From: Candidatus Cloacimonadota bacterium | GTDB taxonomy: Bacteria > Cloacimonadota > Cloacimonadia > JGIOTU-2 | Reading direction: 5' to 3' | Assembly: GCA_049903315.1 (NCBI GenBank) | Contig: JBNGBT010000004.1 | Span: forward strand, 208,031-272,030 | Length of the DNA: 64,000 bases | Shown: piece by piece, positions 3,779 through 43,216 of the stretch | How positions within the stretch are numbered: the first letter of the stretch is position 1 | Layout of the letters: the number at the start of each line of letters is the position of its first letter | Made by a program: the position numbers and the translations under genes | Notes under the pieces: model-generated | What the model was told of the DNA's origin: nothing | What the model saw: the letters and a program-made list of their open reading frames with translations, nothing else | Database searches by the model: none

Positions 3779-5401
3779 TTAATCGGGCTTCTGTTCGATA
3801 ATATAGCCGTCGATCGCCTTGATCATGTCTGCGAGTTTCGGGGATTTTTTCTTGATTTCCTCGTATGATGCGCCGTGCATATACTTTTTCCCTGTCTTCG
3901 GCTCTTCAAACTCGAATACAACCTTAACCGGTGTGTGGAAATGCTCGGAAAAAATCGTTGCGATCTTATCAATATCTTCATTCAGCATCTGGTATGTAAT
4001 TCTGGAATTGGTCGAGTAATGAATAAAATTGTTGGAAATATTTTTTATTGTTGTTTTGGAAAAATGATTTGAAATAATTGGCATTTCGTCCTGTAATTTC
4101 TTTCTCAGTGCTTGCCACTCACTTTGTATGATATCCTCTGTAAGATTTATTTCCGGATCAGTTTTTTCAGATTTGATCTCTTCTGTTTTTTCAGGACGTT
4201 TATTTTTTTTAACTGATCTTTTCTCAAACAAAACTTTTTCAGAGGGTTTTTTTTCTTTCTGTGTACGTGGAGTAAAAGAGGGCATTTGTTTGTGCTGACC
4301 CATATCTTCAACCTGAACTAACCGGCTGATATTAGCCAATTTAAGCAAACTTGTTTCGAGAAGAAGCACAGGATGTGAACAGGTGCGCAACTTGTCTTTT
4401 GTGTCCACGAGCAAAGTAATGACGTACAGGAGATCTTCTTCGGAAAAATATTCGCTGATAGGGGAGAGAGCATCGATTTCATCCGAGTGCACTTCCTCTG
4501 GAATGATGCCGATTTTTATCATAAGGATATTTCTGAAATATTCGATCATGCCGAGGGTGAGTTCATTTATGTCATTGCCTTCTGCCACGACATTATGAAA
4601 ATTTTCGATCAGACCCTTTTCGTCATCTCCAATGATCTTCTGCACTAGCGAATGATATACATCGACATTCACAATCCCGAACACCTGGAGTACATCTTCC
4701 TTCGTGATCTTGTCCTTACCAATAGATACGATCTGGTCCATCAAACTCAATGCATCACGCAGGCTTCCATCTGCTTTTTTTGCCACAAGAAAGATCGCAG
4801 CGTCATTAAAAGTAATATGTTCTTTTGGGGTAATAGTATGTATCTGCTCGATGATCTGTTTGATGGGTATTCGATGGAAATCATAACGCTGGCATCGTGA
4901 AGTGATCGTTGCCAGAACTTTATGAGGTTCAGTTGTTGCAAAGATGAATTTCACGTTTTTAGGTGGTTCTTCGAGGGTCTTCAGGAGTGCATTGAATGCA
5001 TTTTTAGAAAGCATGTGCACTTCATCGATGATGTATATCTTATATTTTGAACTTTGCGGAGGGTATAAGAGCTCGTTTTGCAGACCGCGAATATCTTCTA
5101 CGCTTGTGTTTGATGCACCATCGATCTCGATCACATCAACCGAGTTCGAGCGTGTGATCTCCACGCAGTTCTTGCATTCGTTGCAAGGAGTATCTGTGGG
5201 TCCCTTTTCGCAGTTAAGTGCTTTAGCCAGGATGCGTGCCATCGAGGTTTTTCCCACACCACGCGGTCCGGTAAAAAGGAATGCCTGCGCAATATGATCG
5301 GTCTTGATCGCATTTTTCAGCGTGCGGGTAATATGCTCTTGAGCAATGACCTCATCAAAGGTCTGGGGTCGGTATTTTCGTGCGAGTACTATGTATGCCA
5401 T
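3779..5401 (-). CDS. dnaX: DNA polymerase III subunit gamma/tau
   Basis: [10 protein letters not shown], Walker [10 protein letters not shown], Cys zinc motif, DEVHML, SRCQ. Confidence 0.97.
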
Positions 5402-5494: not shown

Positions 5495-5551
5495 AGAACG
5501 TATAGAAATGTAGCACAAGATTCCGATCTTATGTAAGTAAAAGAGATAGTC

Positions 5552-5741
5552 GTTCATTTTCTCCTTGATGAGAAAACGAACCAAATGAATCACACGCTGA
5601 TCAAGAAAACACTAAAATTTCATTCATTCAGCTAAAAGAAAAGAACTTATTCTTCCGACACTTCGGAAGAATTCAAACAGCTTTCCTTTTTTAACACCTC
5701 ATTCACAAAATTTCTTAACGTGTTTTCTTAATAGGCGGGAA
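5552..5741. repeat. 190-bp structured repeat, copy 1
   Basis: Near-identical to 6022-6211; nested inverted repeats. Confidence 0.85.
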
Positions 5742-6021
5742 TGGATAAGAAAAAATCAAATCCTCTCTAAATAAGGGGAGTACGCCAACTGGCGGATACA
5801 TCATCGCAGGTAAAGCCCAAAGAGATAGTTGCATAATTTAATAATGAAAATTCTAAAGAAGTAAAAATACTCATGAATTTTAATCAATCGAAATTGAGAA
5901 ATTATTGAAAAAGTAACGCATGATTCCAATCTTGCGCGATTCATAACTGAACTGAACACATTAATTATAACGATGAGTCGGGTAAATAGTTGGAATTGAA
6001 ATATAACTGAAAGATAATTAT

Positions 6022-6211
6022 GTTCATTTTCTCCTTGATGAGAAAACGAACCAAAAGAATCACCCGCTGATCAAGAAAACACTAAAATTTCATTCATTCA
6101 GCTAAAAGAAAAGAACTTGTTCTTCCGACACTTCGGAAGAACTCAGACAGCTTTTCTTTTTAAACGCTTCATTCACAAAATTTCTTAACGTATTTTCTTA
6201 ATAGGCGGGAA
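6022..6211. repeat. 190-bp structured repeat, copy 2
   Basis: Direct repeat of 5552-5741, offset 470 bp. Confidence 0.85.
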
Positions 6212-6417: not shown

Positions 6418-6888
6418 TCAGATTTTATGTGCAGAATGGCTTTGTTCTTTATCTGTTTTTTTTATATGTCTTGCAAAAATTCCACCATTAATAACGAGAT
6501 ATGGTCTATCATAAAATTCAGTGACTTTAACTTTAAGGGGCTTGGTAATTTTTAAATTATTGTGCATGTGTGCAATACTTTCATATGCTTTCGAGAGATA
6601 TTTTTCTCTTTCTTTCCAATTTTCAGAAGAGATAATTTTGTGGAAAAGAGGAGTGAGTTCTTTTGCTGATCTTAATTGTGCCAAAGCAGTTCCAAACCAT
6701 TTGCTGTAAGGCACATATTCTTTTTCCATTAAAAAGCAAAGTCTCATGAGTGACTGGACTAATCGAGCAGCAATAATGCGAGAACCTAACTCATCCTCCG
6801 CATCTCCGCATCTGCCGACAAAAGGTTCCTCTTCAGCAATGTTAGTCCATTCCGATGCAAGAAGGTAAAGCCAAATATCATGAGGATA
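6418..6888 (-). pseudogene. 5'-truncated DUF4037-like gene (C-terminal half)
   Basis: YPHDIWLYLLASEW..GDAEDELGSR..PYSKWFGTA..FYDRPY resembles the DUF4037 C-terminal region; upstream the frame runs straight into repeat R1 and has no start of its own. Confidence 0.7.
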
Positions 6889-7006
6889 ATGTTTTGCGCA
6901 TACGGCGGAATCAGCAGGATTCCGTCGTAAAACGAACAGCCAAACACCTGAGCCGGAAGGTTCAGGCAAAAAGCACTGACCAAACCAACTGACGACACGG
7001 CTGTTA
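6887..7006 (-). repeat. attC-like repeat R1 (120 bp)
   Basis: On + strand TAATGTTTTGCG...CCTGAGCCGGAAGGTTCAGG...GACACGGCTGTTA; homologous to R2-R6. Confidence 0.88.
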
Positions 7007-7132
7007 CACGAATTTTTAGTTATTAATCTCGAAAGAATTAGAAAAAAGCTAACCCTGGTAGCTGACTGGGACAATGCCCCAGCCAACGACAGCACCTCGC
7101 TCTCCAAATAAATGGAGATCCAGGGAGTTGCT

Positions 7133-7951
7133 TTATTTTCTACGAATTTCATCTATTTGTTTTTTTGCGCAATGTTTTTTTTTCATCGAAAGACCATCAC
7201 ATATTTCAAAATTATCATTTCGCCATTCAATTTGATTGAAATTTGAAGTTCCTGGCACTTCTGAACCAAGGAAATACCTTTTATTATTATGAATAATGCC
7301 AAAATTTATCGAAGCAGAATCCGGTTTTCTATATAAACCAATTAGTTGTGGAGAACCTCCACAGTTTTTATCTCTTATATTAAATAAAGTATCACAAAAA
7401 CAATGAAAGACATTTCTACTGGTGCTTTTATTTACACCCTGTTGATATCTTTTGTAGTTCTCAATAAATTCTTGTCTACCAGAACCGAGAACAAATAGTA
7501 AATCTGATTGCATAGGCAAATTCATTGTTTCTCTTTTAGAAGTAATTGAGTTTGACCAAGTCATTTTATAACATTTGAAATTAGGATAATTATTAACAAT
7601 TGTGTCTCTGGTAATGTGCATTATGTTTACGATGTTACTTACCAATTTCGGATATTTTGAAAAAGAATGTGATATTTTTTCGAATACAAGTTTGTTTTTT
7701 TTATCACAATTTAGGGTTTTTGTAAAAAGAATATTGGAATCTATCATCTCGATTATTTGAGATAATACTATTGATGGAAATAACACATCGCCAGAATAAG
7801 CTAATATTTCAGGATATTCTTTTGAGGAAAAAACTTTTTTACCATAATCAAATTTGGTTGTACTATTCCATGTAAACCGGCTATCGCCAGCAATATATGC
7901 TGACGTTGGTCCGTGTGTGTCAACGCCTAACCAAGAAACGATTAAGGTCAC
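7133..7951 (-). CDS. Cassette gene: putative Ntn-hydrolase/proteasome-beta-like protein
   Basis: GTG start at 7951 after GGAGA; (M)TLIV..AGDSR..KKVF..AYSGD pattern. Confidence 0.55.
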   Translation of the reverse strand: MTLIVSWLGVDTHGPTSAYIAGDSRFTWNSTTKFDYGKKVFSSKEYPEILAYSGDVLFPSIVLSQIIEMIDSNILFTKTLNCDKKNKLVFEKISHSFSKYPKLVSNIVNIMHITRDTIVNNYPNFKCYKMTWSNSITSKRETMNLPMQSDLLFVLGSGRQEFIENYKRYQQGVNKSTSRNVFHCFCDTLFNIRDKNCGGSPQLIGLYRKPDSASINFGIIHNNKRYFLGSEVPGTSNFNQIEWRNDNFEICDGLSMKKKHCAKKQIDEIRRK

Positions 7952-7982
7952 TTTTATCTCCAACTAATTACAAAATTTCGTG

Positions 7983-8100
7983 TAATGTTTTGCGTGTGCG
8001 GCGGAATCAGAATGATTCAGCCGAGACAAACAGCCCAAACCCTGAACCGGAAGGTTCAGGACAGAAGCACTGACCAGCCCTACAGCCGACACGCTTGTTA
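7983..8100 (-). repeat. attC-like repeat R2 (118 bp)
   Basis: TAATGTTTTGCGTGTGCGGC...CCTGAACCGGAAGGTTCAGG...GCCGACACGCTTGTTA. Confidence 0.9.
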
Positions 8101-8106
8101 AGTGCA

Positions 8107-9138
8107 TCAATCCAAAACATCTCTTCCACTTGTATAAGTAACTTCAATTGTTTCATTGAAAACTAATTTTTGGCTATCACTTGTAAATGATCTTGCAGAA
8201 GAAGCCGGAGTTTCAGATAATAATGTTATTTGATCAGTTACCATATCCCAAACCATGAATTTAGAGAACTCATCTATATAGGCAAGTTTATTTCCGTCAG
8301 GAGAGATTTTAGGAAAGGTTCCTGAGAATAAATGTGAAACGGAATAGTTAGATGTATTGAGTAGATAAATTTCATCATCGTCCTCAAAAACAACTTTTGA
8401 TCTATCTTCGCACATTGATAATTGTATTAAAAATCCTTCATAAATGTATTGATTATTAGTACCATCAGTATTAATTACATAGATACCTGGTTCAGAGAAG
8501 TATTTGCCATTTACATAGATAAGAGTGTTTTCATCAATCCAATCAACAGATGAATATGAGTTTTCCGATGAAAATTCAGAATCAACTACTACATCGATGT
8601 AACCGTCTAAATTGCGAAATTTAAGTGACCAAAGAACACTGTCTGGTAGCTCAAAATAATGTTTCTGAATATATGCAAAATATTCATAATTTGGTGATGG
8701 TTTTACATAACCTTCTACGATAGAATCAGTATTTGTTAGAACCTCAACAGTTCCAGATTCAATCGAACCTAAATAAATGTCACAATCAATTGAAGTTGGA
8801 CCCCAGAAGATTATTTTGTTTAAATTTGGGAACAACTCAAAATCACTAATATCGTAATTGGTTGTATCAGTTGGTAGGATAGTATTTATACTTAAAGTGT
8901 TTAAATCGAGTGAAACAATTTGATCATAAGGGTAACTAATCTTAGTTTTATGTAGGATTTTTGAGTTATTATCATAAAAAATAGAATGTCCTGCACTATA
9001 ATCTGTGAGTTGAATTTTGTTTGTACCATCGCAATTAATCATTGTTAGATAGTCATAATAGTAAGTTTCAGTTATTGGTTCACAACCAATTATAAATAGA
9101 ACTAATACAACCGAAATGCTATAAGCTAAATATTTCAT
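8107..9138 (-). CDS. Cassette gene: lipoprotein with TolB-like beta-propeller repeats
   Basis: Lipobox IIGC; SPNYEYFAY, SPDGNKLAY, TSDSQKLVF repeats; stop codon lies inside the cassette inverted repeat. Confidence 0.7.
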   Translation of the reverse strand: MKYLAYSISVVLVLFIIGCEPITETYYYDYLTMINCDGTNKIQLTDYSAGHSIFYDNNSKILHKTKISYPYDQIVSLDLNTLSINTILPTDTTNYDISDFELFPNLNKIIFWGPTSIDCDIYLGSIESGTVEVLTNTDSIVEGYVKPSPNYEYFAYIQKHYFELPDSVLWSLKFRNLDGYIDVVVDSEFSSENSYSSVDWIDENTLIYVNGKYFSEPGIYVINTDGTNNQYIYEGFLIQLSMCEDRSKVVFEDDDEIYLLNTSNYSVSHLFSGTFPKISPDGNKLAYIDEFSKFMVWDMVTDQITLLSETPASSARSFTSDSQKLVFNETIEVTYTSGRDVLD

Positions 9139-9166
9139 TCCTTTTACTCCATACTTTTGATGCACT

Positions 9167-9284
9167 TAATGTCTTGCGTATGCGGCGGGATCAGAATGAT
9201 CACGCCAAAACAACCAAGCAAACACCTGAGCCGGAAGGCTCAGGACAAAAGAACCGAAAAGCCCAACAGCCGATACGCCTGTTA
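9167..9284 (-). repeat. attC-like repeat R3 (118 bp)
   Basis: TAATGTCTTGCGTATGCGGC...CCTGAGCCGGAAGGCTCAGG...GCCGATACGCCTGTTA. Confidence 0.9.
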
Positions 9285-9323
9285 CAGGCAGTTTAAGATG
9301 AAATATTCTACACATAATTTAAA

Positions 9324-9836
9324 TCACCAGATATATTTGCATCTTACAAGGTATTTTACACCTTCATCAGTAACTGTATATGATTTTCGTCTTTTCTTAT
9401 TAATAAATCCATCTAAATATCCATTATCTTTTAAATATCCAAATGCAATTAGTGTTTTAAGATATGCAGTTATTGTTGATTCTTTGAAACCTACCGCTTC
9501 GGCATATTTATCTTTAAAAAAACAAGGTGCTTCGTTCGTTAACAAAACAAATAAAAGTCTTCTTAGGTGTTTTTTATTTGGTAGTTTTAATTTACGATTT
9601 TTATATAAGCAAATAGAGGTGTAGACAAGTGATAGAATTACAAAACACATTAATATTATTGATAATCTCAACATTGGTAGTGATATTTTACTGTGTAACG
9701 ATAACTGCTGTAATAATTTTGAGAAAAATGGGAAAAATTGAAGACCTGAAGGAGATAAAATTGGGATTACTATTTGTAGGATTGATACAATATCTCTCCA
9801 TGTTAATTTGTTGTTATTTTTATCTTTTTCACTCAC
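9324..9836 (-). CDS. Cassette gene: membrane protein with possible C-terminal winged helix
   Basis: GAGAGGA SD; two hydrophobic segments; 'YLKTLIAFGYL..YTVTDEGVKYL' end. Confidence 0.55.
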   Translation of the reverse strand: MSEKDKNNNKLTWRDIVSILQIVIPILSPSGLQFFPFFSKLLQQLSLHSKISLPMLRLSIILMCFVILSLVYTSICLYKNRKLKLPNKKHLRRLLFVLLTNEAPCFFKDKYAEAVGFKESTITAYLKTLIAFGYLKDNGYLDGFINKKRRKSYTVTDEGVKYLVRCKYIW

Positions 9837-9881
9837 TTCATCCTCTCAATTAAAACAATAAAAAAATACAGCAACTGCCTG

Positions 9882-10001
9882 TAATGTTTGGCGTGTGCGG
9901 CGGAATCAGAAGGATTCCGTCGTAAAACAAACAACCCAAACCCTGAACCGAAAGGTTCAGGCAAAACACACCACGAAACCGAACAGCCGACACGCTTGTT
10001 A
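9882..10001 (-). repeat. attC-like repeat R4 (120 bp)
   Basis: TAATGTTTGGCGTGTGCGGC...CCTGAACCGAAAGGTTCAGG...GCCGACACGCTTGTTA. Confidence 0.9.
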
Positions 10002-10031
10002 AACGCATATATCATAAAATTTCACCGAAAC

Positions 10032-10682
10032 TCAATTACGAAAATAATCTGAATCAGCCAAGATTATTTGCTTATTCGTATGAAAAATTCCTGTAACATT
10101 TGTATATATTTTTGAAATTACTGGTGGAGGATAATTTGTTTTAATTAAAAAAACAACCCAACCATTATTCTCACTAATTTGATTTCCTCTCCAGTTAAAC
10201 TTTTTCCCATTATCATATAATCCTTTTCCACCTGTAAAATTAGAACTTGATCTTCGATACTCATAATTTATTGAATCAACAGGTTGTTCAAATATTAGAG
10301 TAAATTCAAAATTATTAATTGGTTTTTTAGTAATGTTTTTGAAACCAAGCTCATAATATTTATTTGTATTTTGGTAGGGTTGAGGATTTTTAATTTTTTG
10401 ATAGAACAATTCATATTTGGGAATAGAAACATTGTCTTCAGAGTTTTCAAAATTGTAGTTAATTATTACATCACTATTATCACCTTCCGTTGAAATTGCA
10501 GGTGAGAAAGAACCATCTGTAGTATTATGTATTTCCTTATACTCATCTTCTTTTGGATTAATAATGAATTTAGTTACCAGAGTTAATGCGAATGATATTA
10601 TTGCTAAATAAGATACAAAGACAGTTATCTTTGTTGGAAAACTCCAAGCTTTCCATTGTTTTCTTGAAGGAATAAATTTCAT
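10032..10682 (-). CDS. Cassette gene: hypothetical protein with an N-terminal TM segment
   Basis: 216-aa ORF filling the R4-R5 interval. Confidence 0.65.
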   Translation of the reverse strand: MKFIPSRKQWKAWSFPTKITVFVSYLAIISFALTLVTKFIINPKEDEYKEIHNTTDGSFSPAISTEGDNSDVIINYNFENSEDNVSIPKYELFYQKIKNPQPYQNTNKYYELGFKNITKKPINNFEFTLIFEQPVDSINYEYRRSSSNFTGGKGLYDNGKKFNWRGNQISENNGWVVFLIKTNYPPPVISKIYTNVTGIFHTNKQIILADSDYFRN

Positions 10683-10719
10683 TTATCAACCCCACAAAAC
10701 TCAATAATTAATATGCGTT

Positions 10720-10838
10720 TAATGTTTTGCGTGTGCGGTGTGATCGGAACGATCACGCCAACCCAAACAAACCAGCCGTTTGAATCGTAAGATTCAAACA
10801 AAGAGCACTGACCAACCCGAACAACGACACGCCTGTTA
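10720..10838 (-). repeat. attC-like repeat R5 (119 bp)
   Basis: TAATGTTTTGCGTGTGCGGT...TTTGAATCGTAAGATTCAAA...ACGACACGCCTGTTA. Confidence 0.9.
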
Positions 10839-10850
10839 GGCACATTTTAC

Positions 10851-11492
10851 TTATGTAGAAAAATCAAGTTCCTGAGATCTTGTATATGATTGTGCTCTGG
10901 GAATTGATATTGGTATATTCTGAATTATGGGATTATTTTTTTGAGGTTCATAAATTATTGATAAATCAGCATTAACAGGTAACAAATTGGAACTAATTTC
11001 ATGTGTTAAACCATAGTCTTTTGCTTCAGTCGGATTAAGTGTAGTTCGATTATTCATGTCCTCGAATATTTTATCGGTTGATTTTCCTGTATTGTCAGCT
11101 ATAACTCTTGCAATATTTAATTGATCAATTTTTAATCCATTTAAGTGTTCTTCTATTTGCTTTTCGTCTAAGCTAACGTTACCATTGAAATTAAATCTTA
11201 CTCCATGAAGAAGGAACCTTGAGTGGGGAACTGAAAAACGTTTTTCTCCAGCGCAATAAATTACAACACCAATTGAATCAACGCTACCAAAATTATACGT
11301 GTCAATTTTTATTGGAGCTCCTTTGAGATAGTTATAAATGGACAGACCATGAAAGACAGAACCTCCTGGAGAAGAAATCATTAAATGTAGTTTTTCAAAT
11401 TTTTGAGCGATTTTTTGATCAATTATCCGTAATAGTTGATCACTTGTTTGCGGAATTACGGGAGCCATAAATCTAATGTAACATTCTTTCAT
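10851..11492 (-). CDS. Cassette gene: ClpP-like (S14) peptidase
   Basis: ISSPGGSV..GLSIYN, VDSIG (Ser), RFLLH (His), EAKDYGL motifs; GGAGG SD. Confidence 0.8.
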   Translation of the reverse strand: MKECYIRFMAPVIPQTSDQLLRIIDQKIAQKFEKLHLMISSPGGSVFHGLSIYNYLKGAPIKIDTYNFGSVDSIGVVIYCAGEKRFSVPHSRFLLHGVRFNFNGNVSLDEKQIEEHLNGLKIDQLNIARVIADNTGKSTDKIFEDMNNRTTLNPTEAKDYGLTHEISSNLLPVNADLSIIYEPQKNNPIIQNIPISIPRAQSYTRSQELDFST

Positions 11493-11526
11493 TTTACTTT
11501 ACCTCCAATTTTTTTTTAAATGTGCC

Positions 11527-11646
11527 TAATGTTTGGCGTGTGCGACGGGATCGGAACGATCACGCCCAAAACAAACCGACCAGCCGTTTGAATCGGAAGA
11601 TTCAAACAAAGAGCACTGACCAACCCTACTGCCGACACGCTTGTTA
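11527..11646 (-). repeat. attC-like repeat R6 (120 bp)
   Basis: TAATGTTTGGCGTGTGCGAC...TTTGAATCGGAAGATTCAAA...GCCGACACGCTTGTTA. Confidence 0.9.
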
Positions 11647-11744
11647 GCTACATCTTTTTCTATTTCAATTACTTACATTTTAAACTTATTTAAGTAAAGA
11701 ATTTTATTGTTGTTCTTGGATAAATGGGTGTCATAATTAATTCT

Positions 11745-12218
11745 TCATTTTTTTATCTGAAACCATTCTGATTCAATTTTACCTTGTGGATAAAAACCTT
11801 TGTAAGGCGACCCAGGCATATTTATAAATGGCGAGTGCATATATATAATGTCTCCAATTAATTTAAAGCTATATTTGCCTTTGATTGGGGCAATTACTTT
11901 ATATTTGTCAGGATAATTGAAAATTGTGAAACCCTGTTTAGTCGGTAATAAACGTTTTTTTTTGAGCTTATTATTTTCATTTTTATAAAGAATAAAAAGA
12001 TTTGACGAATAATAAAAATCAGGATTATCAATTCCTTTAATATCTACAGAAAAAGTTAGAGTATCTAATTTTGTGGAAATGTCAGAAGTTATTAAAGAAA
12101 TACTTCTATGTTTATAAAGATTCGAGATATAATTATAACTTACTTTAGTATTGAAGTTATATGCACATGAAGATAACAAAAATAAGAAACACGCTGATTT
12201 TAATAATTTTATTAGCAT
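11745..12218 (-). CDS. Cassette gene: putative lipoprotein
   Basis: Lipobox-like LLSSC; recombinase-proximal cassette. Confidence 0.6.
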   Translation of the reverse strand: MLIKLLKSACFLFLLSSCAYNFNTKVSYNYISNLYKHRSISLITSDISTKLDTLTFSVDIKGIDNPDFYYSSNLFILYKNENNKLKKKRLLPTKQGFTIFNYPDKYKVIAPIKGKYSFKLIGDIIYMHSPFINMPGSPYKGFYPQGKIESEWFQIKK

Positions 12219-12272
12219 ATTATTAACCTAAAAATATTTTCCAATTCTCCATCCATTTCATTTAGATGTAGC

Positions 12273-12366
12273 TAATGTTTGTATACCCGACCAAAAGGTC
12301 GTGTATATTACGATTAAATTTCCTATAAGGTCGTATACAATACAATATATAAGTTATATACGAACT
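12273..12366 (-). other. Candidate attI-like primary recombination site
   Basis: Begins TAATGTTT like the repeats, then diverges; palindrome TATACCCGACC-AAAA-GGTCGTGTATA and a repeated AAGGTCGT; lies between cassette 1 and the recombinase stop. Confidence 0.65.
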
Positions 12367-12382
12367 TGTTTTAATTATGAAA

Positions 12383-13447
12383 TTATGTTTCATCTAACTT
12401 CAAATTATCCAATGGACTTTTAATTTTGTTTCTTGCTGTATGTGTAACATGGGTATATATCTCTGTTGTTCTTGAGCTTTTGTGCCCTAAAAGTTCTTGA
12501 ATATACCTCAAATCAGTCCCATGCTCCAATAAATGAGTAGCAAAACTATGCCGTAAAGTATGTATTGAAGCATGTTTCTTTACTCCAGATTTGTTTACAG
12601 CTGCTTTAAATAATTTTTGTATTACTCTCCTACTGAATTGTTCTCCGTATTTGCTTTCAAACAGCCATTTCTTTGGTTTATAAACCTTATAATATGTTCT
12701 TAGTAAATCTAATACGGTATCTGAAAGAATGCCGTATCTATCCTTGTTGCCTTTTGCGCTTCGAATAAATATCTGTTTTCGATCAGAATGAATGTCGGAT
12801 ATTCTCAAATGTACAACTTCTGTTAAACGTAATCCTGCAGAATAGATCAAATAGATAATACATTTATATTTCAGGTTCTTGACCTGTTTCAATATTTTTG
12901 TTACTTCTTCCTCGCTTAGAACTTCCGGTAGCTTTTTTTCTTTTCTTGGTCGAGGAACGTAATATTTTTCAACAGGTTTTCCCAGCACTTTTTCATAATA
13001 AAACTTTATACTGTTTATTGCTTGATTCTGTGCAGAAGTGGAATATTTCTTCTTATCTACCAGGTATAACAAATATTTACGGATCTGTTCATGTGTGATA
13101 TCTTTCAATTTAGTGTTTTGATAATATTTTAAAAACCGCTGAAAATGAAGACGATAAGTTTTAATGGTTGCGTCACTATAGTTTTTCAATTTCAAAGTTT
13201 CAATGTATTCAGAAGGGAAATCTAGTTTTGTATCAGTATCTTCTATGAATTCTAATTTACCTTTGAATTTCGTATGTAAAACACTAATGATATTTTTTTG
13301 ATAGGGGATATGCCAGAACTTATTTGAAGCAGACCACTTTCTGCCTTCTATCTGTTTAATCTGTCTAATCGTATTTATGTCATAATCAAACAGTAGAGCA
13401 ATACGTCTCTGCTTATCAATCAAATATTCCTTAGTCTTTATCTGCAT
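12383..13447 (-). CDS. Tyrosine recombinase associated with the cassette array (lacks the IntI-specific insertion)
   Basis: Intact R(GLR)-K(KGNKDR)-HxxR(HTLRHSF)-H(LGH)-Y(TEIYTHV); SAM-like core-binding domain; about 75-aa N-terminal extension. Confidence 0.93.
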   Translation of the reverse strand: MQIKTKEYLIDKQRRIALLFDYDINTIRQIKQIEGRKWSASNKFWHIPYQKNIISVLHTKFKGKLEFIEDTDTKLDFPSEYIETLKLKNYSDATIKTYRLHFQRFLKYYQNTKLKDITHEQIRKYLLYLVDKKKYSTSAQNQAINSIKFYYEKVLGKPVEKYYVPRPRKEKKLPEVLSEEEVTKILKQVKNLKYKCIIYLIYSAGLRLTEVVHLRISDIHSDRKQIFIRSAKGNKDRYGILSDTVLDLLRTYYKVYKPKKWLFESKYGEQFSRRVIQKLFKAAVNKSGVKKHASIHTLRHSFATHLLEHGTDLRYIQELLGHKSSRTTEIYTHVTHTARNKIKSPLDNLKLDET

Positions 13448-13512
13448 ACTATATCCTTCAGGTCATAATTTGGAGAATCATATTCCTCTTGTCAAAGTAA
13501 ATATTTTTTTCA

Positions 13513-14154
13513 TTAAAATCCCATATTCTCCTTAATTAAAAATATCTTTATCCTGTCCGGAATATTCTGGCGCATATTAATGGTCAGGTGTTTGCAGATA
13601 CGCTCCTCAGCATCGCAGTCTGTGCAATAGCCGTTTTCAGCGCATGGAGTATTTCGTTTCAGCCGCTTTGCATTAATGGGAGCAGCCACATCGAGTACCC
13701 GGTCAATCGCCTGCTGCCTGTCCATCACGATCTTGTTCATGCCGGCAAAGAGGAATATTTTTCTTGGTCCAAAAATAATAGCTGAAACCCGGTTGCCATA
13801 CCCGTCGATATTCACGATCTCACCTTCTGTGGTAATTGCATTGCATCCGGCAAGGAAGAAGTCGGACATGAGTGTTTTTCTGCGAAGTTCAAAAATTTCA
13901 TCTCTGCTAAGGTTGGGGAGATAGGGATTAATAATATTGTAGTTATTGTCTTTGAGATGATCGAACAGTCCGATCTCCCGCACGGTCATGGAGCCGCCTA
14001 TGCCGATGGATGATTTCTTATCGAGTTCCTTCAATGCTTTTTCACGGGCATCGTCACTATTTTCACAGAGTTCTACAAGGAAGTTATGTTTTTCCAGCGC
14101 TTCTTTTGCCTTTTTCATCATTGTTTCGTTGTGCCAGTTCACGAATTCAGACAT
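13513..14154 (-). CDS. LUD-domain (lactate utilization-like) protein
   Basis: GIGGSMT, NIDGYGNRVSA, GMNKIV, PCAENGYCTDC..RIC; ATG at 14154 with GGAGG SD. Confidence 0.85.
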   Translation of the reverse strand: MSEFVNWHNETMMKKAKEALEKHNFLVELCENSDDAREKALKELDKKSSIGIGGSMTVREIGLFDHLKDNNYNIINPYLPNLSRDEIFELRRKTLMSDFFLAGCNAITTEGEIVNIDGYGNRVSAIIFGPRKIFLFAGMNKIVMDRQQAIDRVLDVAAPINAKRLKRNTPCAENGYCTDCDAEERICKHLTINMRQNIPDRIKIFLIKENMGF

Positions 14155-24704: not shown

Positions 24705-24958
24705 TGTTTACGGCAGTTTTTCGGTAAAAAATTGGAAATTTTAGTTTATAATACCCATACTGCAAGTTATACGATTACTGATCATAAACGTGAAGAGGGA
24801 ATACCGGCAGGATTGTTGAGGGATTGAGATAAATTCTTGACAGACTCCATTGAGTATATCGAAACCATAATCAAATAATTATGCTGTTAATAGAGATACA
24901 ATTTGCTATTAATGTACATTCATAAACTGTAATTTATAAATGAAACTGGAGATAGAAA

Positions 24959-26431
24959 ATGAAAAAAAGATTTATTGCTTTTAGTGTTGTATTTTTTACT
25001 ATGTTATTTGTCTTTACAAGCATAAAATTAACACAATGTTATGCACACGACAGCGAAGAAGTAAATCTTCAGATCATCACAGAGGATTTAGCGCCTTATA
25101 ATTTTAGATCTGAAGATGGAGAGATCACTGGTCGATCCACAGATGTGGTGAAGGAGATATTATCTCGGCTTAGTTTGAATATCGAAATTCAACTTATGAA
25201 TTGGAATAAGGCGTATGCAATGGCTCTTTCTAAGCCGGATGTCATCCTTTATTCAACCTTTCGCACCGACGATCGCGAAAATCTATTCCAATGGGTTGGT
25301 CCAATTGCATCTGATGAGATATTGTTCTATGCATTAAAGGGATCGGCTCTTGTCATCCGCAGTCTTGAAGATGCTAAAGCAGTTTCAGCGATCGGGGTAG
25401 TAAAGGATGATGCTCGTCATCAACTGCTTGTGCAGAATAATTTCACGAATTTGAAACTTTATCCAACTGATGTGGAGTGTTACAAAGCTCTTGCAAATGG
25501 AGAAGTTGATCTCGTATTGGGAATCAATGCAAGTATGGCTATGATGGCAGGTCAGGCGGGTTTGGATCCGTCTGAATTGACATCGGTTTATTCCGTAAGA
25601 AAAACTCCGATCTATATTGCTTTTAATAAAAATATTTCGTCCGATATTGTGGAAGAGTGGCAGAACACACTTAATCAAATAAAACGAGACGGGACATTTG
25701 ATAATATAAATGAACGTTGGGGTGGCGGAACTATACAGGGTTACACGAAATCAGATACAGGCATTGGGATAACCTCGATTGCCGCAACACAACTCCTTGC
25801 AGGATATGTTGACCTTCGTCTTGGTGAATTTCTTGCTGTGTTGCAAACTTTATCCTATACAGATCAAGTCCGTTCAGGAAACTGGGAAAAAATGAAACCA
25901 CTTCTCGTTGAGCGCGAAAACGCAGAGCAAGCTGGACGCATTTGGTACCTGTTACCTGATGGTTCATATTGTACTACTGTGGATGATCTCACGAGCAAGA
26001 ATCTAAAAAGCCGTTCATATTTCCCTGGTTTGATCGCAGGAAACTCCGTTCTTGGTTCAGTCGTTGTGAGTAAATCTACAGGCAAACCAGTAGCCGTTGT
26101 AGCTGCTCCGATTATAAAGAATGACAAGGTAGCAGGAGCACTCGGCACTTCGATCTACATGCAGGAAATTAATGATGAAATCCGAGATACATTCCCGTTA
26201 CAGTCTAATCAGATGTTTTTTGCAGTCGCAAATGATGGGGTCATTTCTTTACATTCAGATGATGAATGGATAGGGCAGCAGATAGGTAATATCAACAGTG
26301 ATCTGGAGTCAAATTTAGTTAAGGATTCTGGTGAGTGCAATTTTACATTTGACGGAAAGGACTGGCATGCAGTGTGGACAACTGCACCCAAAACAGGATG
26401 GCGCATTGTCATCGCTAGTATAATGAATTAA
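24959..26431 (+). CDS. Family-3 substrate-binding domain fused to a Cache-like domain
   Basis: TEDLAPYNF..RENLFQWVGP..DGTFDNI; SRSYF..VVSKSTGKPVAVVAAPI..TGWRIV. Confidence 0.75.
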   Translation: MKKRFIAFSVVFFTMLFVFTSIKLTQCYAHDSEEVNLQIITEDLAPYNFRSEDGEITGRSTDVVKEILSRLSLNIEIQLMNWNKAYAMALSKPDVILYSTFRTDDRENLFQWVGPIASDEILFYALKGSALVIRSLEDAKAVSAIGVVKDDARHQLLVQNNFTNLKLYPTDVECYKALANGEVDLVLGINASMAMMAGQAGLDPSELTSVYSVRKTPIYIAFNKNISSDIVEEWQNTLNQIKRDGTFDNINERWGGGTIQGYTKSDTGIGITSIAATQLLAGYVDLRLGEFLAVLQTLSYTDQVRSGNWEKMKPLLVERENAEQAGRIWYLLPDGSYCTTVDDLTSKNLKSRSYFPGLIAGNSVLGSVVVSKSTGKPVAVVAAPIIKNDKVAGALGTSIYMQEINDEIRDTFPLQSNQMFFAVANDGVISLHSDDEWIGQQIGNINSDLESNLVKDSGECNFTFDGKDWHAVWTTAPKTGWRIVIASIMN

Positions 26432-26506
26432 TTTTATGTGATTTCTTGACAGAAATTGCACTCTAGTTTGGAAGGTTAATAGTCAATAATCTTCGAGGAG
26501 AAAAGA

Positions 26507-27301
26507 ATGAAAAACAGGATGATTGTTTTTGGTGTTGTATTTTTTGCCATAATATTTATATTTACAGGTCAGAAAATAACAAAATGTTTTGCGCAGGACA
26601 ATGAAGAAGTAAACTTACAGATCATCACAGAGGATTTCGCTCCCTATAATTTTAGATCTGAAGATGGAGAGATCACGGGACGTTCTACAGATGTGGTTGA
26701 GGAAATATTATCACGACTTAGTTTGAATATCGAAATTCAACTTATGAACTGGAATAAGGCCTATGCAATGGCTCTCTCGAAGCCGGATGTAATTCTTTAT
26801 TCAACCTTTCGCACCGATGATCGTGAAAATCTTTTTCAATGGGTTGGTCCAATTGCAACTGATGAAATGTTGTTCTATGCGCTTCAAGGTTCAGATATTG
26901 TGATCGACAGTCTGGAAGATGTAAAGGAAGTTGCAGCGATTGGAGTAGTGAAGGATGATGCCCGTCATCAACTGCTTGTACGGAACAATATAATGAATCT
27001 GAAACTTTATCCGACCGATATGCAGTGTTACAGGGCTTTGGCAACCGGTGAAGTCGAACTCGTACTTGGAAGCAATGCGACCATGGCTATGATGGCAGGC
27101 CAGGCAGGTGTGGCTGCATCTGAACTGAAACCGGTCTATTCCGTGAAAAAGACTCCACTCTATATTGCTTTTAGTAAAAATATTTCACCAGATATTGTGG
27201 AAGAATGGCAAAGTACACTTAATGAAATGATACAAGATGGAACATTGGATACTATCAATCAAAGTTGGACTGTTACAGCCATACAGGATAGCACGCAATA
27301 A
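26507..27301 (+). CDS. Family-3 substrate-binding protein (paralog of the preceding N-terminal domain)
   Basis: Long stretches identical to 24959-25720. Confidence 0.85.
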   Translation: MKNRMIVFGVVFFAIIFIFTGQKITKCFAQDNEEVNLQIITEDFAPYNFRSEDGEITGRSTDVVEEILSRLSLNIEIQLMNWNKAYAMALSKPDVILYSTFRTDDRENLFQWVGPIATDEMLFYALQGSDIVIDSLEDVKEVAAIGVVKDDARHQLLVRNNIMNLKLYPTDMQCYRALATGEVELVLGSNATMAMMAGQAGVAASELKPVYSVKKTPLYIAFSKNISPDIVEEWQSTLNEMIQDGTLDTINQSWTVTAIQDSTQ

Positions 27302-38959: not shown

Positions 38960-41089
38960 ATGAAAAAATTTATCCTTATTGGGATAGCTCTGTCTCTCAT
39001 TGCGTGTGCATATCTTCAACCTGTTAGCGAATCAAAAACAGCAATCAAGCCCGAACCTCCGATAGCAAAGAAAATTCCGTATGAAACTTCTATCCATGAC
39101 ACTTTTCTGGTTGATTACTACTATTGGATGAAAGATAAAACACGAACCGATCCCGACGTGATTGCGCATATAGAAAAAGAAAATACTTATACTGATAGCA
39201 TATTGCTTCACACAACTGAATTGCAGGAGCATCTTTACCAGGAGATTGTTGGCAGGATTCAGAAAACAGATATTTCCGTTCCAGTCCGTATCGACAGTTT
39301 TTATTACTACTGGAAAGATATTGAAGGAAAAGAATATTCAATATATTGCAGAAAGAAATGCGTGCCCGATGCTGAAGAGGAAATAATACTTGATGTGAAT
39401 GAACTGGCCTCCGGGCATGAATTTTACGATGTATCTGATATTGCTTTGAGTCCGGATCATAAGTATATTGCGTATGCTGTTGATACAACCGGAGCAGAGC
39501 GTTACACGCTTACTATAGAGAATATTAATGAACATACCTTTTTACCTGATACTGCCTATCCCGTCAGTGATGTTGTATGGGCAGAAGACAATAAGACGAT
39601 GTTTTATACTATAGAAAATGAGGTGGGAAGAAGCGATAAACTCTATCGGCATGTTCTTGGTACTGAACGGAAAGAAGATGAACTGCTCTTTCAGGAAAAT
39701 GATAGGGCATATTATGTGTGGATATATAAATCGAAAAATAGAGAATATCTAATATTTACTACTGGCAGTGAAACAACGTATGAAGTCCGATTCCTGAAAG
39801 CAGATGATCCATTTGGTGAATTTAAGATCGTCCAACCGCGGGAACAGGATCACAGGTATTATATCTGTCCCCATATGAATGACTTCTATATTGTATCAAA
39901 TGATGATGCGCAAAATTATAAGGTGATGATCACTTCCGTTGACAATCCGGGGAAAGAAAACTGGAAGGAAATCATTCCCCAGAGGGATTCAGTTTCAATT
40001 GATATTGAAATATTCAAAGATTATATGGTTATATATGAACAGCAAAATGCGTTACGAAAAATCAGAATAATAAATATTAACACAAATGAAGAATATTATA
40101 TAGATTTTCCTGAGCCGTTCTATTCTATTTTTGCAATGAGGAATCCTAATTTTGCTACTCATATTTTCAGATTTTCCTATGAGTCTATGGTGACACCGAG
40201 ATCTATTTATGACTATAATATGGAAACAAGGGAACGAGAATTGAGGAAAAGTCAGGAGATTCCAAGCGGGTATGATGCATCTCAATATAACTACGAAAGG
40301 GTTTTTGCAAAAGCTCTGGATGGCACACCAATTCCAATCTCGTTAGTGTATAAAAAAGATCTATTCTCAAAAGATGGTAAGAATCCTTTGGTGCTTTATG
40401 CCTATGGTTCTTATGGGGACTGCATTGATCCTTATTTTTCTACAAGTCGATTATCTCTTCTCAATCGTGGTTTTGTTTATGCGATTGCGCATGTGCGCGG
40501 GGGGGGTGAAAATGGGGAACAGTGGTATGATCAGGGAAGACTCCTCAATAAGAAGAATACATTCACGGATTTCATTGCCTGCGAGGAATATCTTATTCAG
40601 GAACATTATACAAGCACGGAAAAACTCGTGATCGAAGGAGCAAGTGCAGGTGGCTTGCTTATAGGCGCGGTTTTGAATATGCGACCGGAATTATGCGAGA
40701 TTGCAATTGCGGATGTCCCTTTTGTGGACTTGATCTATACATCACTTGATACAACTTTATCTGCAGTTGAATGGCATTATGATGAATTTGGAAATCCTCT
40801 GAATGAAGAAGAATATGATTATATGATATCCTACTGTCCCTATCAAAATGTAAAAGCTCAGCGTTATCCTCATATTCTTGCGTTAGGTGGATTTTATGAT
40901 CCCAGGGTCAACTACTGGGAGCCGGCGAAATGGATTGCAAAGATCCGCGAAAACAAGCTGGATGACAATCTTGCGCTGCTTAAAATTCAACTTTCTGGTC
41001 ACGCTGGGGCAACAGGAAGATTTTCTTATTTACGAGAAGTGGCACTGAAGTATGCCTTTATATTTGATATTCTCGGGATTCAGTTTTAG
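38960..41089 (+). CDS. ptrB: Oligopeptidase B (S9A), lipoprotein
   Basis: LIAC lipobox; HVRGGGE, GASAGG, DPRV, GH catalytic triad. Confidence 0.9.
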   Translation: MKKFILIGIALSLIACAYLQPVSESKTAIKPEPPIAKKIPYETSIHDTFLVDYYYWMKDKTRTDPDVIAHIEKENTYTDSILLHTTELQEHLYQEIVGRIQKTDISVPVRIDSFYYYWKDIEGKEYSIYCRKKCVPDAEEEIILDVNELASGHEFYDVSDIALSPDHKYIAYAVDTTGAERYTLTIENINEHTFLPDTAYPVSDVVWAEDNKTMFYTIENEVGRSDKLYRHVLGTERKEDELLFQENDRAYYVWIYKSKNREYLIFTTGSETTYEVRFLKADDPFGEFKIVQPREQDHRYYICPHMNDFYIVSNDDAQNYKVMITSVDNPGKENWKEIIPQRDSVSIDIEIFKDYMVIYEQQNALRKIRIININTNEEYYIDFPEPFYSIFAMRNPNFATHIFRFSYESMVTPRSIYDYNMETRERELRKSQEIPSGYDASQYNYERVFAKALDGTPIPISLVYKKDLFSKDGKNPLVLYAYGSYGDCIDPYFSTSRLSLLNRGFVYAIAHVRGGGENGEQWYDQGRLLNKKNTFTDFIACEEYLIQEHYTSTEKLVIEGASAGGLLIGAVLNMRPELCEIAIADVPFVDLIYTSLDTTLSAVEWHYDEFGNPLNEEEYDYMISYCPYQNVKAQRYPHILALGGFYDPRVNYWEPAKWIAKIRENKLDDNLALLKIQLSGHAGATGRFSYLREVALKYAFIFDILGIQF

Positions 41090-43216
41090 ATGAAAAAAGT
41101 TACTATTTTTATTTTTATTTTGTTTCTGGGTTCCTGTGCATCTCAAACAATCAAAAAAGAATATACTCTGTATCCGCACTTGGTGCCGCCAGTTGCAAAA
41201 AAAATCCCCACATCAACAACGCTGCATGGCGTCGAACTGAAAGATAATTATGCATGGATGATAGATGACACACGAACCGACTCTGCTGTCATATCATATA
41301 TCGAGGCAGAAAATCTCTATGCAGAGGAAATCCTTTCTGATATGTCTGCACTCAAAGATACGATATTCAATGAGATAATTGGCAGGATAGGCGAAGAAGA
41401 TGTGAATGCTCCCACTCGCTGGGGTGATTATTATTACTATTCACGAAGGGAAGAGGGTAAACCCTATTTGATCTATTGCAGAAAATTGGGATCGCTTGCA
41501 GCCACAGAAGAGATTGTCCTGGATTTGAATAAACTTGCACAAGGGCACGATTTTTTTTCTGTAGGGAGAAGGGAGTACAGTCCTGACCAAACTTTGCTGG
41601 CATATACTGTTGACGTTACTGGTGATGAGCGATACACGCTATACATCAAGGATATTGAAGCTGACACATTGCTTTCCGATGAGATGTATCTCGTAAATGA
41701 TGTGGAATGGGCAAATGATAATAAAACCATTTTTTATGTAACGCCAAATGAAGATAACCTGAAAAGTAAACTCGCATATCGGCATGTTCTGGGAACCGAT
41801 CCGTCAGAAGATGAGCTGCTCTACAGAGAAAATGATAATGCATTCTATGTGTGGTTTGGCAGAACGCGGTCGAATGATTATATCGTTCTTGGAACAAACA
41901 GCAGAACAACATCTGACGCTCGCTATCTCGATGCGGACAATCCCGAAGGAGACTTCACACTCTTTCAACCACGAGTGCAGGATGTGAAGTATTATATGAC
42001 CAATAATGATTCAACTTTATACATCAGAACTAATGAATCAGCTCCGAATTATAAGATCATGACCACTCAATGGAACGATCGCTTTCAATGGAAAACCTTC
42101 ATTCCGCACTGCGATTCTGTCTATATTGATGGATTCGATGTTTTTGAGAAGTATCTCGTTGTGTACGAGCAACATAGCGGTGTAATCAAACCACATATTT
42201 TCCTTCTTGAAGATGGTACGGATTATTATATGACATTTCCCGAAGATGTGTATGCTTTCTCCAGCAGATGGACTCCGGATTTTGATACGGACACATTATA
42301 CTATTCCTATTCCTCGCTCACCACGCCATCGTCTGTATATGCGTATAATATGAAAACAAAAGAAAGAGTCCTTCTCAAACGATACGAGGTGATTGGGAGC
42401 TTCGATCCTGAACAGTATCAGTCCGAGCAGATCTATGCGACATCACACGACGGCACAAAGGTTCCGATTTCTCTTGTCTATAAAAAAGATCTCTTCAAAC
42501 AAGACGGAACCAATCCGCTGTATCTCACTGCGTATGGCGCGTATGGGAGCAGCAGAAGTGCCGGGTTTTCTCGGATACGTATAAGTTTGCTTGATAGGGG
42601 ATTTGTTTATGCAATTGCGCATGTCCGTGGTGGAAAAGAGAAGGGCGAGCAGTGGTATGAGCAAGGGAAATTACTCAATAAGAAAAATACATTTCTCGAT
42701 TATATCGCGTGTGCGGAATATTTAGTTGAGAATCATTACACAAATCCTTCAAAGCAAGCTGCTTTTGGTGCTAGTGCAGGTGGCATGTTGATGGGAGTTG
42801 TGGCAAACTGGCGTCCTGATCTTTTTGAAGTTATTGTTGCGGACGTGCCATCTATGGACAAGCTGACTGTGCTCATGGACTCGACTGCTTCCGGCACACA
42901 ATATCATTATGATGAACTGGGGAATCCGTACAAGAAGGAGTATTTTGATTACCTGCTGTCCTGGGATACCTACCAAAACATCAAAAAACAGGACTACCCG
43001 AATATGATGCTCACTGCCGGCTTTAATGACAGCCGTGTCCGCTACTGGCAGCCCCTCCGCTGGACAGCAAAAGTCCGCGATATGAAAACAGACAATAATG
43101 TGATCATACTCAAAACAAATATGGCTGGACATTATGGAGGTTCTGGCAGATACACGCAATACGAGGATATTGCAGAACGATATGCCTTTATTATTCGCAT
43201 GTTGGGTGTAGAATGA
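41090..43216 (+). CDS. ptrB: Oligopeptidase B (S9A) paralog, lipoprotein
   Basis: LGSC lipobox; HVRGGKE, GASAGG, DSRV, GH. Confidence 0.9.
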   Translation: MKKVTIFIFILFLGSCASQTIKKEYTLYPHLVPPVAKKIPTSTTLHGVELKDNYAWMIDDTRTDSAVISYIEAENLYAEEILSDMSALKDTIFNEIIGRIGEEDVNAPTRWGDYYYYSRREEGKPYLIYCRKLGSLAATEEIVLDLNKLAQGHDFFSVGRREYSPDQTLLAYTVDVTGDERYTLYIKDIEADTLLSDEMYLVNDVEWANDNKTIFYVTPNEDNLKSKLAYRHVLGTDPSEDELLYRENDNAFYVWFGRTRSNDYIVLGTNSRTTSDARYLDADNPEGDFTLFQPRVQDVKYYMTNNDSTLYIRTNESAPNYKIMTTQWNDRFQWKTFIPHCDSVYIDGFDVFEKYLVVYEQHSGVIKPHIFLLEDGTDYYMTFPEDVYAFSSRWTPDFDTDTLYYSYSSLTTPSSVYAYNMKTKERVLLKRYEVIGSFDPEQYQSEQIYATSHDGTKVPISLVYKKDLFKQDGTNPLYLTAYGAYGSSRSAGFSRIRISLLDRGFVYAIAHVRGGKEKGEQWYEQGKLLNKKNTFLDYIACAEYLVENHYTNPSKQAAFGASAGGMLMGVVANWRPDLFEVIVADVPSMDKLTVLMDSTASGTQYHYDELGNPYKKEYFDYLLSWDTYQNIKKQDYPNMMLTAGFNDSRVRYWQPLRWTAKVRDMKTDNNVIILKTNMAGHYGGSGRYTQYEDIAERYAFIIRMLGVE

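Follow-up and report, generated by a model that had tools for sequence, protein, structure and literature searches.

We analysed a 64,000-nucleotide (nt) stretch of DNA, hereafter the window, from a marine Candidatus Cloacimonadota bacterium (GCA_049903315.1, contig JBNGBT010000004.1, positions 208,031–272,030 of the forward strand), whose genome (G000) has a size of 2.96 Mb and a GC content of 38.5%. Between dnaX and a LUD-domain gene, the window carries an integron-like array: a tyrosine recombinase gene and, behind it, six repeated sites of 118–120 nt (R1–R6; GC 48–53%) that alternate with six unrelated open reading frames (ORFs) co-oriented with the recombinase gene upstream of them (Table 1).

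The ORFs, single and on the minus strand, encode 157–343 amino acids (aa) and occupy 76–97% of the intervals. Their GC content is 26–32%, below that of the genome, and the recombinase gene is AT-rich too (31.5% GC). One product resembles ClpP, family matches of the other five are weak or absent, and family searches assigned none of the six to an immunity family. Searched with a profile of the six sites, the genome yields seven copies (E < 1e-24; next match E = 8), six in the window array and one on contig C69; an Rfam search of the sites gave no match. A sequence-only reading of this DNA had described six homologous repeats alternating with six unrelated, co-oriented, AT-rich single ORFs, which the coordinates and the genome profile bear out, the repeats not being scattered genome-wide. 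It had also placed the array about 100 bp from the recombinase stop codon, which holds for the start of the first cassette (12273–12276, 106 nt from the stop codon at 12383–12385) and not for the nearest full repeat, 737 nt off. Three features go beyond that reading: complementary cassette ends, a distinct site next to the recombinase gene and a truncated DUF4037 gene.

Table 1 Features of the array and its flanks in the window
Feature	Position	Strand	Remarks
dnaX	3779..5401	-	downstream chromosomal flank
DUF4037 gene, internal fragment	6418..6890	-	residues 175–326 of 361-aa homologue, 82%; cut at ATTA of R1
Site R1	6887..7006	-	120 nt, last of array
Cassette 6 ORF	7133..7963	-	276 aa, unnamed widespread family
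Site R2	7983..8100	-	118 nt
Cassette 5 ORF	8107..9138	-	343 aa, weak TolB/PD40 propeller matches
Site R3	9167..9284	-	118 nt
Cassette 4 ORF	9324..9836	-	170 aa, weak winged-helix matches
Site R4	9882..10001	-	120 nt
Cassette 3 ORF	10032..10682	-	216 aa, no family
Site R5	10720..10838	-	119 nt
Cassette 2 ORF	10851..11492	-	213 aa, ClpP-like
Site R6	11527..11646	-	120 nt, attC-like
Cassette 1 ORF	11745..12218	-	157 aa, no family
attI-like primary site	12273..12382	-	hairpins ending ATTA, no AAC arm
Tyrosine recombinase	12383..13447	-	354 aa, Phage_int_SAM_4 + Phage_integrase, no IntI insertion
N-terminal domain of recombinase, aa 1–75	13223..13447	-	tentatively HARP-like (Pfam and fold comparison)
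Promoter-like element	13467..13495	-	upstream of recombinase; TTGACA, 17 nt, CAAATT
LUD-domain gene	13513..14154	-	upstream chromosomal flank

A recombinase without the IntI insertion

Residues R207, K232, H296, R299, H322 and Y331, which we take to be the catalytic R-K-H-R-H-Y set of tyrosine recombinases, are all present and are invariant in 49 aligned homologues, suggesting that the enzyme is catalytically intact, as had been proposed. The insertion specific to IntI is absent: 21 residues lie between the aligned blocks, versus 64 in VchIntIA, and K232 and H296 are 64 residues apart, versus 106 in IntI2 and 71–72 in XerD. Because the recombinase lacks this insertion, the array is not an IntI integron, in agreement with the earlier proposal of an integron-like architecture built on a non-IntI recombinase. 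The protein narrowly passes the cut-off of NF040815 (221.1 vs 220) and fails those of the Xer families (XerD, 195.8 < 329.6; XerC, 187.5 < 335). A tree groups it, at 100/100 support, with proteins labelled Cloacimonadota. The array recombinase occurs once in the genome, at the window array; Xer-type genes are separate from it.

We regard it as unlikely that the locus descends from an ordinary integron lineage in which IntI lost its insertion and the sites are divergent attC. TIGR02249, the integron integrase family, is the best NCBIfam match by E-value, and VchIntIA is among the top structural matches, which are headed in the PDB by XerA; an ‘integron-like’ subgroup is said, in the available passages of PMC8138268, not to conserve the insertion fully; and both the length of the sites and the co-orientation of the genes have integron parallels (see below). 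However, the TIGR02249 match (227.9 bits) lies below the cut-off of 265 and is split into two stretches, the K232–H296 spacing departs from that of IntI2, and core identity to IntI2 (34%; 32% to XerD) is no higher than to IS91-linked recombinases (31–44%). Compared with attC, the extra base and the long spacer of the sites are also on the other arm.

The N-terminal 75 residues are predicted to fold as a separate domain. Pfam HARP is matched (E ≤ 0.1; best E 1.2e-4) by 21 of 43 homologous N-termini, the window's own not among them. The best fold match is the N-terminus of T4 UvsW (Z 6.0, rmsd 3.6, 63 aligned); a SMARCAL1 HARP chain gives E 0.044, and SMARCAL1 HARP is absent among the 50 fold matches listed. 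This HARP-like domain might stand in for the IntI insertion. Nine homologues of 277–281 aa lack it, several of them with an attI-like GTT end by eye, and a strict first-cassette test was passed by none of the five testable ones. Six Bacteroidota homologues of 477–604 aa (L019, L025, L033, L044, L061 and L148) contain several repeats of the N-terminal domain motif, and genomes of family f8 (for example G164:C46, G178:C337 and G182:C77) carry a tandem pair of homologous recombinase genes, of which one is often interrupted by stops.

Cassette ends, site fold and crossover point

All six sites start with TAAT and end with GTTA on the plus strand. Successive sites have complementary flanks: the right flank of one site, reverse-complemented, gives the left flank of the site that follows. 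The matching cassette ends reach 6, 10, 9, 9, 9 and 9 nt beyond TTA, versus 0–2 nt in 36 other pairings. The pattern recurs in relatives, where 39 of 50 adjacent-site intervals match at no fewer than six of eight end positions; between the flanks of a single site, such a match is seen in 4 of 145 cases. Among the 39 intervals, 37 hold a co-oriented ORF and two hold no ORF. Each cassette has its own end sequence, and it is therefore pairing, not sequence, that is kept. Short cassettes without a clear ORF also occur (L272, L280, L286 and L399), forming one family, 85–92% alike, in three genomes.

For fold analysis we used 43 distinct sites of 110–125 nt, drawn from 48 full sites of which five with other lengths were omitted. 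On the strand opposite the genes they fit a cloverleaf with 95.9% of 1116 cells paired; both partners have changed in 12 of 26 pairs (shuffles, 5.4 ± 1.3), and pairing in slid controls is 26–39%. These figures call for caution, since the cloverleaf was derived from the very sequences on which it was counted and therefore looks better against the controls than it should. T·G makes up the triplet pair in 42 of 43 sites, 42 of 43 carry an extra G in the 5′ (L′) arm, and the spacers measure 5 nt on one arm and 2 nt on the other. G·T pairs number 88 on the strand opposite the genes versus 13 on the gene strand (46 versus 13 excluding the triplet pair). A local alternative pairing of the 5′ arm was rejected, being weaker than the long-range arm (79.9% paired, two pairs changed on both sides). 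Natural short variants of 45–85 nt (L183, L185, L187, L209 and L219) keep both ends and miss one or both cap hairpins.

Free folding gives less comfort to this model. The probability of the basal stem is 0.00–0.08 in array form versus 0.73–0.96 in circle form, even circle form leaves the 10-bp arm incomplete (0.00–0.67), and folding energies favour neither strand. Since the outer stem folds freely only in circle form, capture would be favoured over excision; PMC5371416 describes a trade-off between the two in sedentary integrons. Two stable local hairpins fold on both strands, which would suit repeats that are RNA elements (terminators, processing sites or REP-like elements) in an array grown by homologous recombination between them, as would the chimeric site bodies in two of six shared cassette families. 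This explanation is strongly disfavoured and, in our judgement, highly improbable: it accounts neither for the complementary cassette ends nor for the one-base junctions and the cut DUF4037 gene described next, the genome contains only seven copies, none with an Rfam match, and the wobble bias lies on the non-transcribed strand.

The crossover point can be read from three kinds of junction. The attI-like element follows the recombinase stop codon in all ten close homologues read, nine ending in ATT and one in GTT. At the other end of the array, R1 joins the DUF4037 gene at a point matching residues 175–176 of the 361-aa homologue, a Tyr-Tyr pair whose codons can provide ATTA; no DUF4037 homologue was found in 22 genomes of the order. 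In three families of shared cassettes, identity begins at TT, after A in one genome and G in another. Together, these junctions place the crossover at N|TT, as in integrons. With IntI1, the first triplet base must match between partners, or recombination drops 10^3–10^4-fold, according to passages of PMC2811028. Here the opposite base stays G, pairing with C or T, which would allow ATT and shorter GTT sites to share arrays. Across 199 sites, AAC was found in 192, ATT in 188 and GTT in two, with a profile built from ATT sites. A second class of short sites, about 55 nt and ending in GTT, lies in arrays of 119-nt ATT sites at six loci (L280, L283, L289, L292, L295 and L422).

Array content in relatives

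The locus between the LUD-domain gene and dnaX varies among related genomes. It is empty in G008, with dnaX 56 nt from the LUD gene; G001 and G004 have a recombinase remnant with other genes; in G002 and G009, the promoter-like motif and the first codons are joined to an attI-like site, followed by other cassettes; G003 and G005 are uninformative. None of 12 homologous cassette pairs shares its next cassette. Cassette content differs between relatives, where the sequence-only reading had taken identical gene order as grounds for rejection. Cassette 2 has a single homologue (56%) in 231 other genomes, by eye with no site next to it, and a homologue of cassette 5 (67% DNA identity) in G221 is flanked by different neighbours; tblastn of the window cassettes found none in the homologous loci first gathered. 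A 5.8-kb three-gene cassette with complementary ends lies at a locus orthologous to the window (L187, ~6610–12430).

A second platform in the host genome (G000:C69, ~11960–13400; L220) consists of one DUF4238 cassette with 10-nt complementary ends (PADLOC DUF4238-Pers, 1e-53) behind a TTGACA-plus-attI element that lacks a recombinase. Its site ends beside a LysM/M23-like gene, at a chromosomal base where different cassettes terminate in G004 and G008. We had considered this copy a lone ectopic insertion whose body travels with the upstream ORF, a view dropped in light of its own attI-like head and of shared cassettes with swapped bodies. Twelve recombinase-less promoter-plus-attI elements occur in seven genomes (5 ATT, 6 GTT, 1 GCT), and ten tested loci with such elements gave no recombinase match; they are probably deletion relics served in trans.

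Arrays that persist on these platforms, and where the recombinase is deleted (G002, G004 and G009), could also mean that the sites are real but recombined as double-stranded DNA, or moved by host XerCD or an HUH transposase, with the neighbouring recombinase as a passenger. The weak basal stem in array form and the adjacency of related recombinases to IS91-family transposases agree with this. Double-stranded recognition, however, predicts neither that cassette ends vary yet stay complementary nor that G·T pairs are strand-biased, and both the attI-like site behind the stop codon of every close homologue read and the single genomic copy of this recombinase, at the window array, argue against a passenger. 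We therefore consider it quite improbable.

A recombinase profile (E ≤ 1e-60) matches in 50 of the 232 genomes of the phylum on which it was run. A site model, run on 80 genomes picked from these and enriched for recombinase positives, matches in 48 (f1, 14/20; f8, 31/37; f6, 0/11), with up to 45 sites per genome; the counts span kin that are not independent and assemblies that are incomplete. The sequence-only reading had proposed to look for co-location of sites and recombinase; at the level of whole genomes, sites occur in 35 of 46 recombinase-positive genomes and in 13 of 34 others. Among 80 homologous loci, a strict chain detector found chains of at least two only in L027, L064, L077 and the window; it is too strict and underpowered because most contigs end near the recombinase gene (within 600 nt downstream for 55 of 126 intact ORFs, and upstream for 19).

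Outside the array, a 211-nt repeat lies in two copies (5531–5741 and 6001–6211; 91%) between dnaX and the array; seven more partial matches lie on C11, C22 and C4, and related genomes have matches too. It could be a miniature inverted-repeat transposable element (MITE)-like repeat or a non-coding RNA, and has no Rfam match. The window also contains tandem paralogous gene pairs at 24958–27301 and 39580–43216 (85% and 71–78% DNA identity).

Relation to rAID arrays and integrons

Plasmid matches led us to recombinases that head type VI secretion system (T6SS)-immunity arrays in P. distasonis and B. ovatus. These arrays fit rAID-1 because they combine an XerD-like recombinase, co-directional low-GC genes and repeats; rAID-1 has been described in these terms, with repeats ‘reminiscent of integrons’, from 226 of 423 Bacteroidales genomes (10.1101/471110). 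A 2025 preprint calls rAID biogenesis open (10.1101/2025.05.03.651265), and the available text of both papers gives no crossover, fold or mechanism. The published definition asks for a 5′ XerD-like recombinase more than 44% identical to BF9343_RS08045 (10.1101/471110); the P. distasonis and B. ovatus enzymes, our proxies for that protein, are 47.4 and 47.7% identical to the window recombinase over 266 core columns and likewise have no insertion. It further asks for at least two co-directional downstream genes with GC ≤41%, which compares with six genes at 26–32% here, and for conserved intergenic motifs, of which the window shares the array ends and differs in the body. Orphan T6SS immunity cargo and a Bacteroidales host, also part of the definition, are not found here.

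The rAID-like arrays have 44–48-nt sites running from AAC to ATT, as do the ends in the window; the pattern used required an ATT end, and all 12 printed spacers of L450 show ATT. Their cassette ends match at 5–8 of 8 positions in 17 of 19 cases, like the complementary ends in the window. They differ in having hairpin sites instead of a 119-nt cloverleaf, in phylum, in their immunity cargo and in a 95-aa N-terminus without a Pfam match in place of the HARP-like one. We dropped the ATT triplet as a Cloacimonadota speciality, since rAID-like arrays show it. Architecture and site ends appear to place the window array with the rAID recombinases, whereas cargo and host do not. It is not categorically new, its recombinase having relatives that head Bacteroidales rAID immunity arrays, and the earlier suggestion of an undescribed parallel class is not supported as it stood, the architecture having been published as rAID-1.

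With integrons, the array shares a recombinase, a primary site, promoterless one-gene cassettes, a crossover after the first triplet base, folded sites on the strand opposite the genes and a lineage-typical site family, and its sites fall within the attC length range of 57–141 bp (PMC5027507). The same source, in the passages available, gives attC a C–G triplet pair, extrahelical bases on L″ and a 5–6-nt spacer on each arm, whereas the window sites have ATT with a T·G wobble instead of the AAC/GTT pair, an extra G on L′, a 5/2-nt spacer and a two-hairpin cap; the departures in triplet and fold noted from the sequence alone are upheld. The window also differs in its structured attI-like site, in site bodies that are not fixed to genes and in the missing insertion. 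Co-orientation, which had been counted as a further departure, is real and yet found in true integrons of Treponema (PMC3607928, in part; PMC8618304 is likewise cited as prior knowledge). With XerC, XerD and XerA, the recombinase shares a compact catalytic domain, and differs in its patchy distribution and cassette context.

Other relatives lie outside such arrays. TnpF/‘xerD’ proteins upstream of tet(X) genes on Acinetobacter plasmids are 56% identical over the catalytic part and have the same 64-residue K–H spacing. In L447 (3486–5507), tet(X5) follows a co-oriented TnpF-type recombinase gene, N-terminally truncated unlike that of the window, and an attI-like GTTA lies 14 nt ahead of the tet(X5) start. 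Beyond tet(X5) in L447 no matching end turned up, which leaves this gene a candidate cassette. In L451, L453, L454, L456 and L457, an IS91-family or other transposase comes directly after a related recombinase without the insertion, and a Clostridium plasmid match (H12) was rejected as an array because its recombinase is IS91-linked.

Taken together, our data make it likely that the array works like an integron, as a sedentary platform for gene capture that belongs to the rAID recombinase family and sits on a Cloacimonadota chromosome. Each cassette would comprise a single ORF without a promoter, enclosed by a pair of short complementary ends, and then a site body of 119 nt. In vivo, the strand opposite the genes would fold, single-stranded, into a stem of paired cassette ends in which AAT faces GTT with a T·G wobble, topped by a bubble of unequal sides (5 and 2 nt), an arm of 10 bp carrying one extra G and a two-hairpin cap. 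The window recombinase would act on these sites and drive the array, cutting the strand opposite the genes at AA|T (N|TT on the top strand). Circular cassettes would enter the attI-like site that follows the recombinase stop codon and, from time to time, ATTA sequences present by chance, as in the DUF4037 gene. The element at 13467..13495, with TTGACA at the matching place in G001, G002, G004 and G009, is a candidate promoter for the recombinase gene that may read through into the array.

Beyond the folding results above, several observations weigh against this reading. The wider family clade, with TnpF and two rAID-like proteins, has a support of only 89/88, and the placement of IntI2 is unsure. 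A promoter consensus scan omits the 13467..13495 element and gives no excess over shuffles. All 13 genomes with sites and no recombinase match are incomplete assemblies. The strict first-cassette test, applied to 53 homologous recombinase loci, was passed by 13 distant ones (40 of 530 controls), and four of the closest homologues failed. Circular-cassette junctions had been suggested as a check, and no excision, circle or shuffled junction appeared in the contigs of four runs. Two joints (8018–10778 and 10797–11622) were rejected as excisions: they have 20-nt sides and extra letters and are other site copies. A loose end at 11526 may come from another organism. A 763-nt contig of run X14 carries cassette 6 (10 differences, depth 4) with the other cassettes absent, which is instead a weak hint that array content changes.

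The site bodies also depart from a fixed ORF-plus-attC unit. Bodies after 12 pairs of homologous cassette 3′ ends are 57–84% identical, against a background of 73 ± 7, and in seven pairs with cassettes 94–98% alike, the following bodies are only 57–79% identical. Upstream bodies are equally unlinked to cassettes (64–77%, five pairs). In six cassette families, from a small sample in one genus of another family, identity stops 5–7 nt from AAC in three, is ambiguous in one and runs 16–33 nt into the body in two. The stop near AAC would fit a further crossover on the gene strand, at AA|C, and the longer runs would fit recombination or conversion inside bodies; these sequence comparisons suggest that genes can trade recombination sites.

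A literature search of titles, abstracts and passages, outside subscription journals, found no paper that maps this crossover or fold. What is new here is the N|TT crossover with a T·G wobble that tolerates ATT or GTT, the recombinase-less promoter-plus-attI platforms, and cassettes 95–98% alike whose site bodies are unrelated, a hint of a second crossover at the AAC end. More tentatively, and with less than even confidence, the rAID arrays, the Cloacimonadota arrays and the recombinase beside tet(X) may form a second, IntI-independent class of integron, whose enzyme would cut both ends of the folded site: ATT to insert, and AAC on the other strand to excise with the neighbour's site. If so, site bodies would be exchanged between genes, accounting for how foreign genes come by host-typical sites, and the wobble would let ATT and GTT cassettes mix.

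Recombination of folded single strands is taken to require the IntI insertion, on which detection tools also rely (passages of PMC9024848, PMC8138268 and PMC9668308). A family that lacks it and keeps cassette logic would widen the definition of an integron, and many arrays would go undetected. The crossover, fold and wobble mapped here turn the question of rAID biogenesis into a direct assay, and the swapping of site bodies bears on how cassettes obtain host-typical sites, in a family of which a close relative of the window recombinase adjoins tet(X5) on Acinetobacter plasmids.

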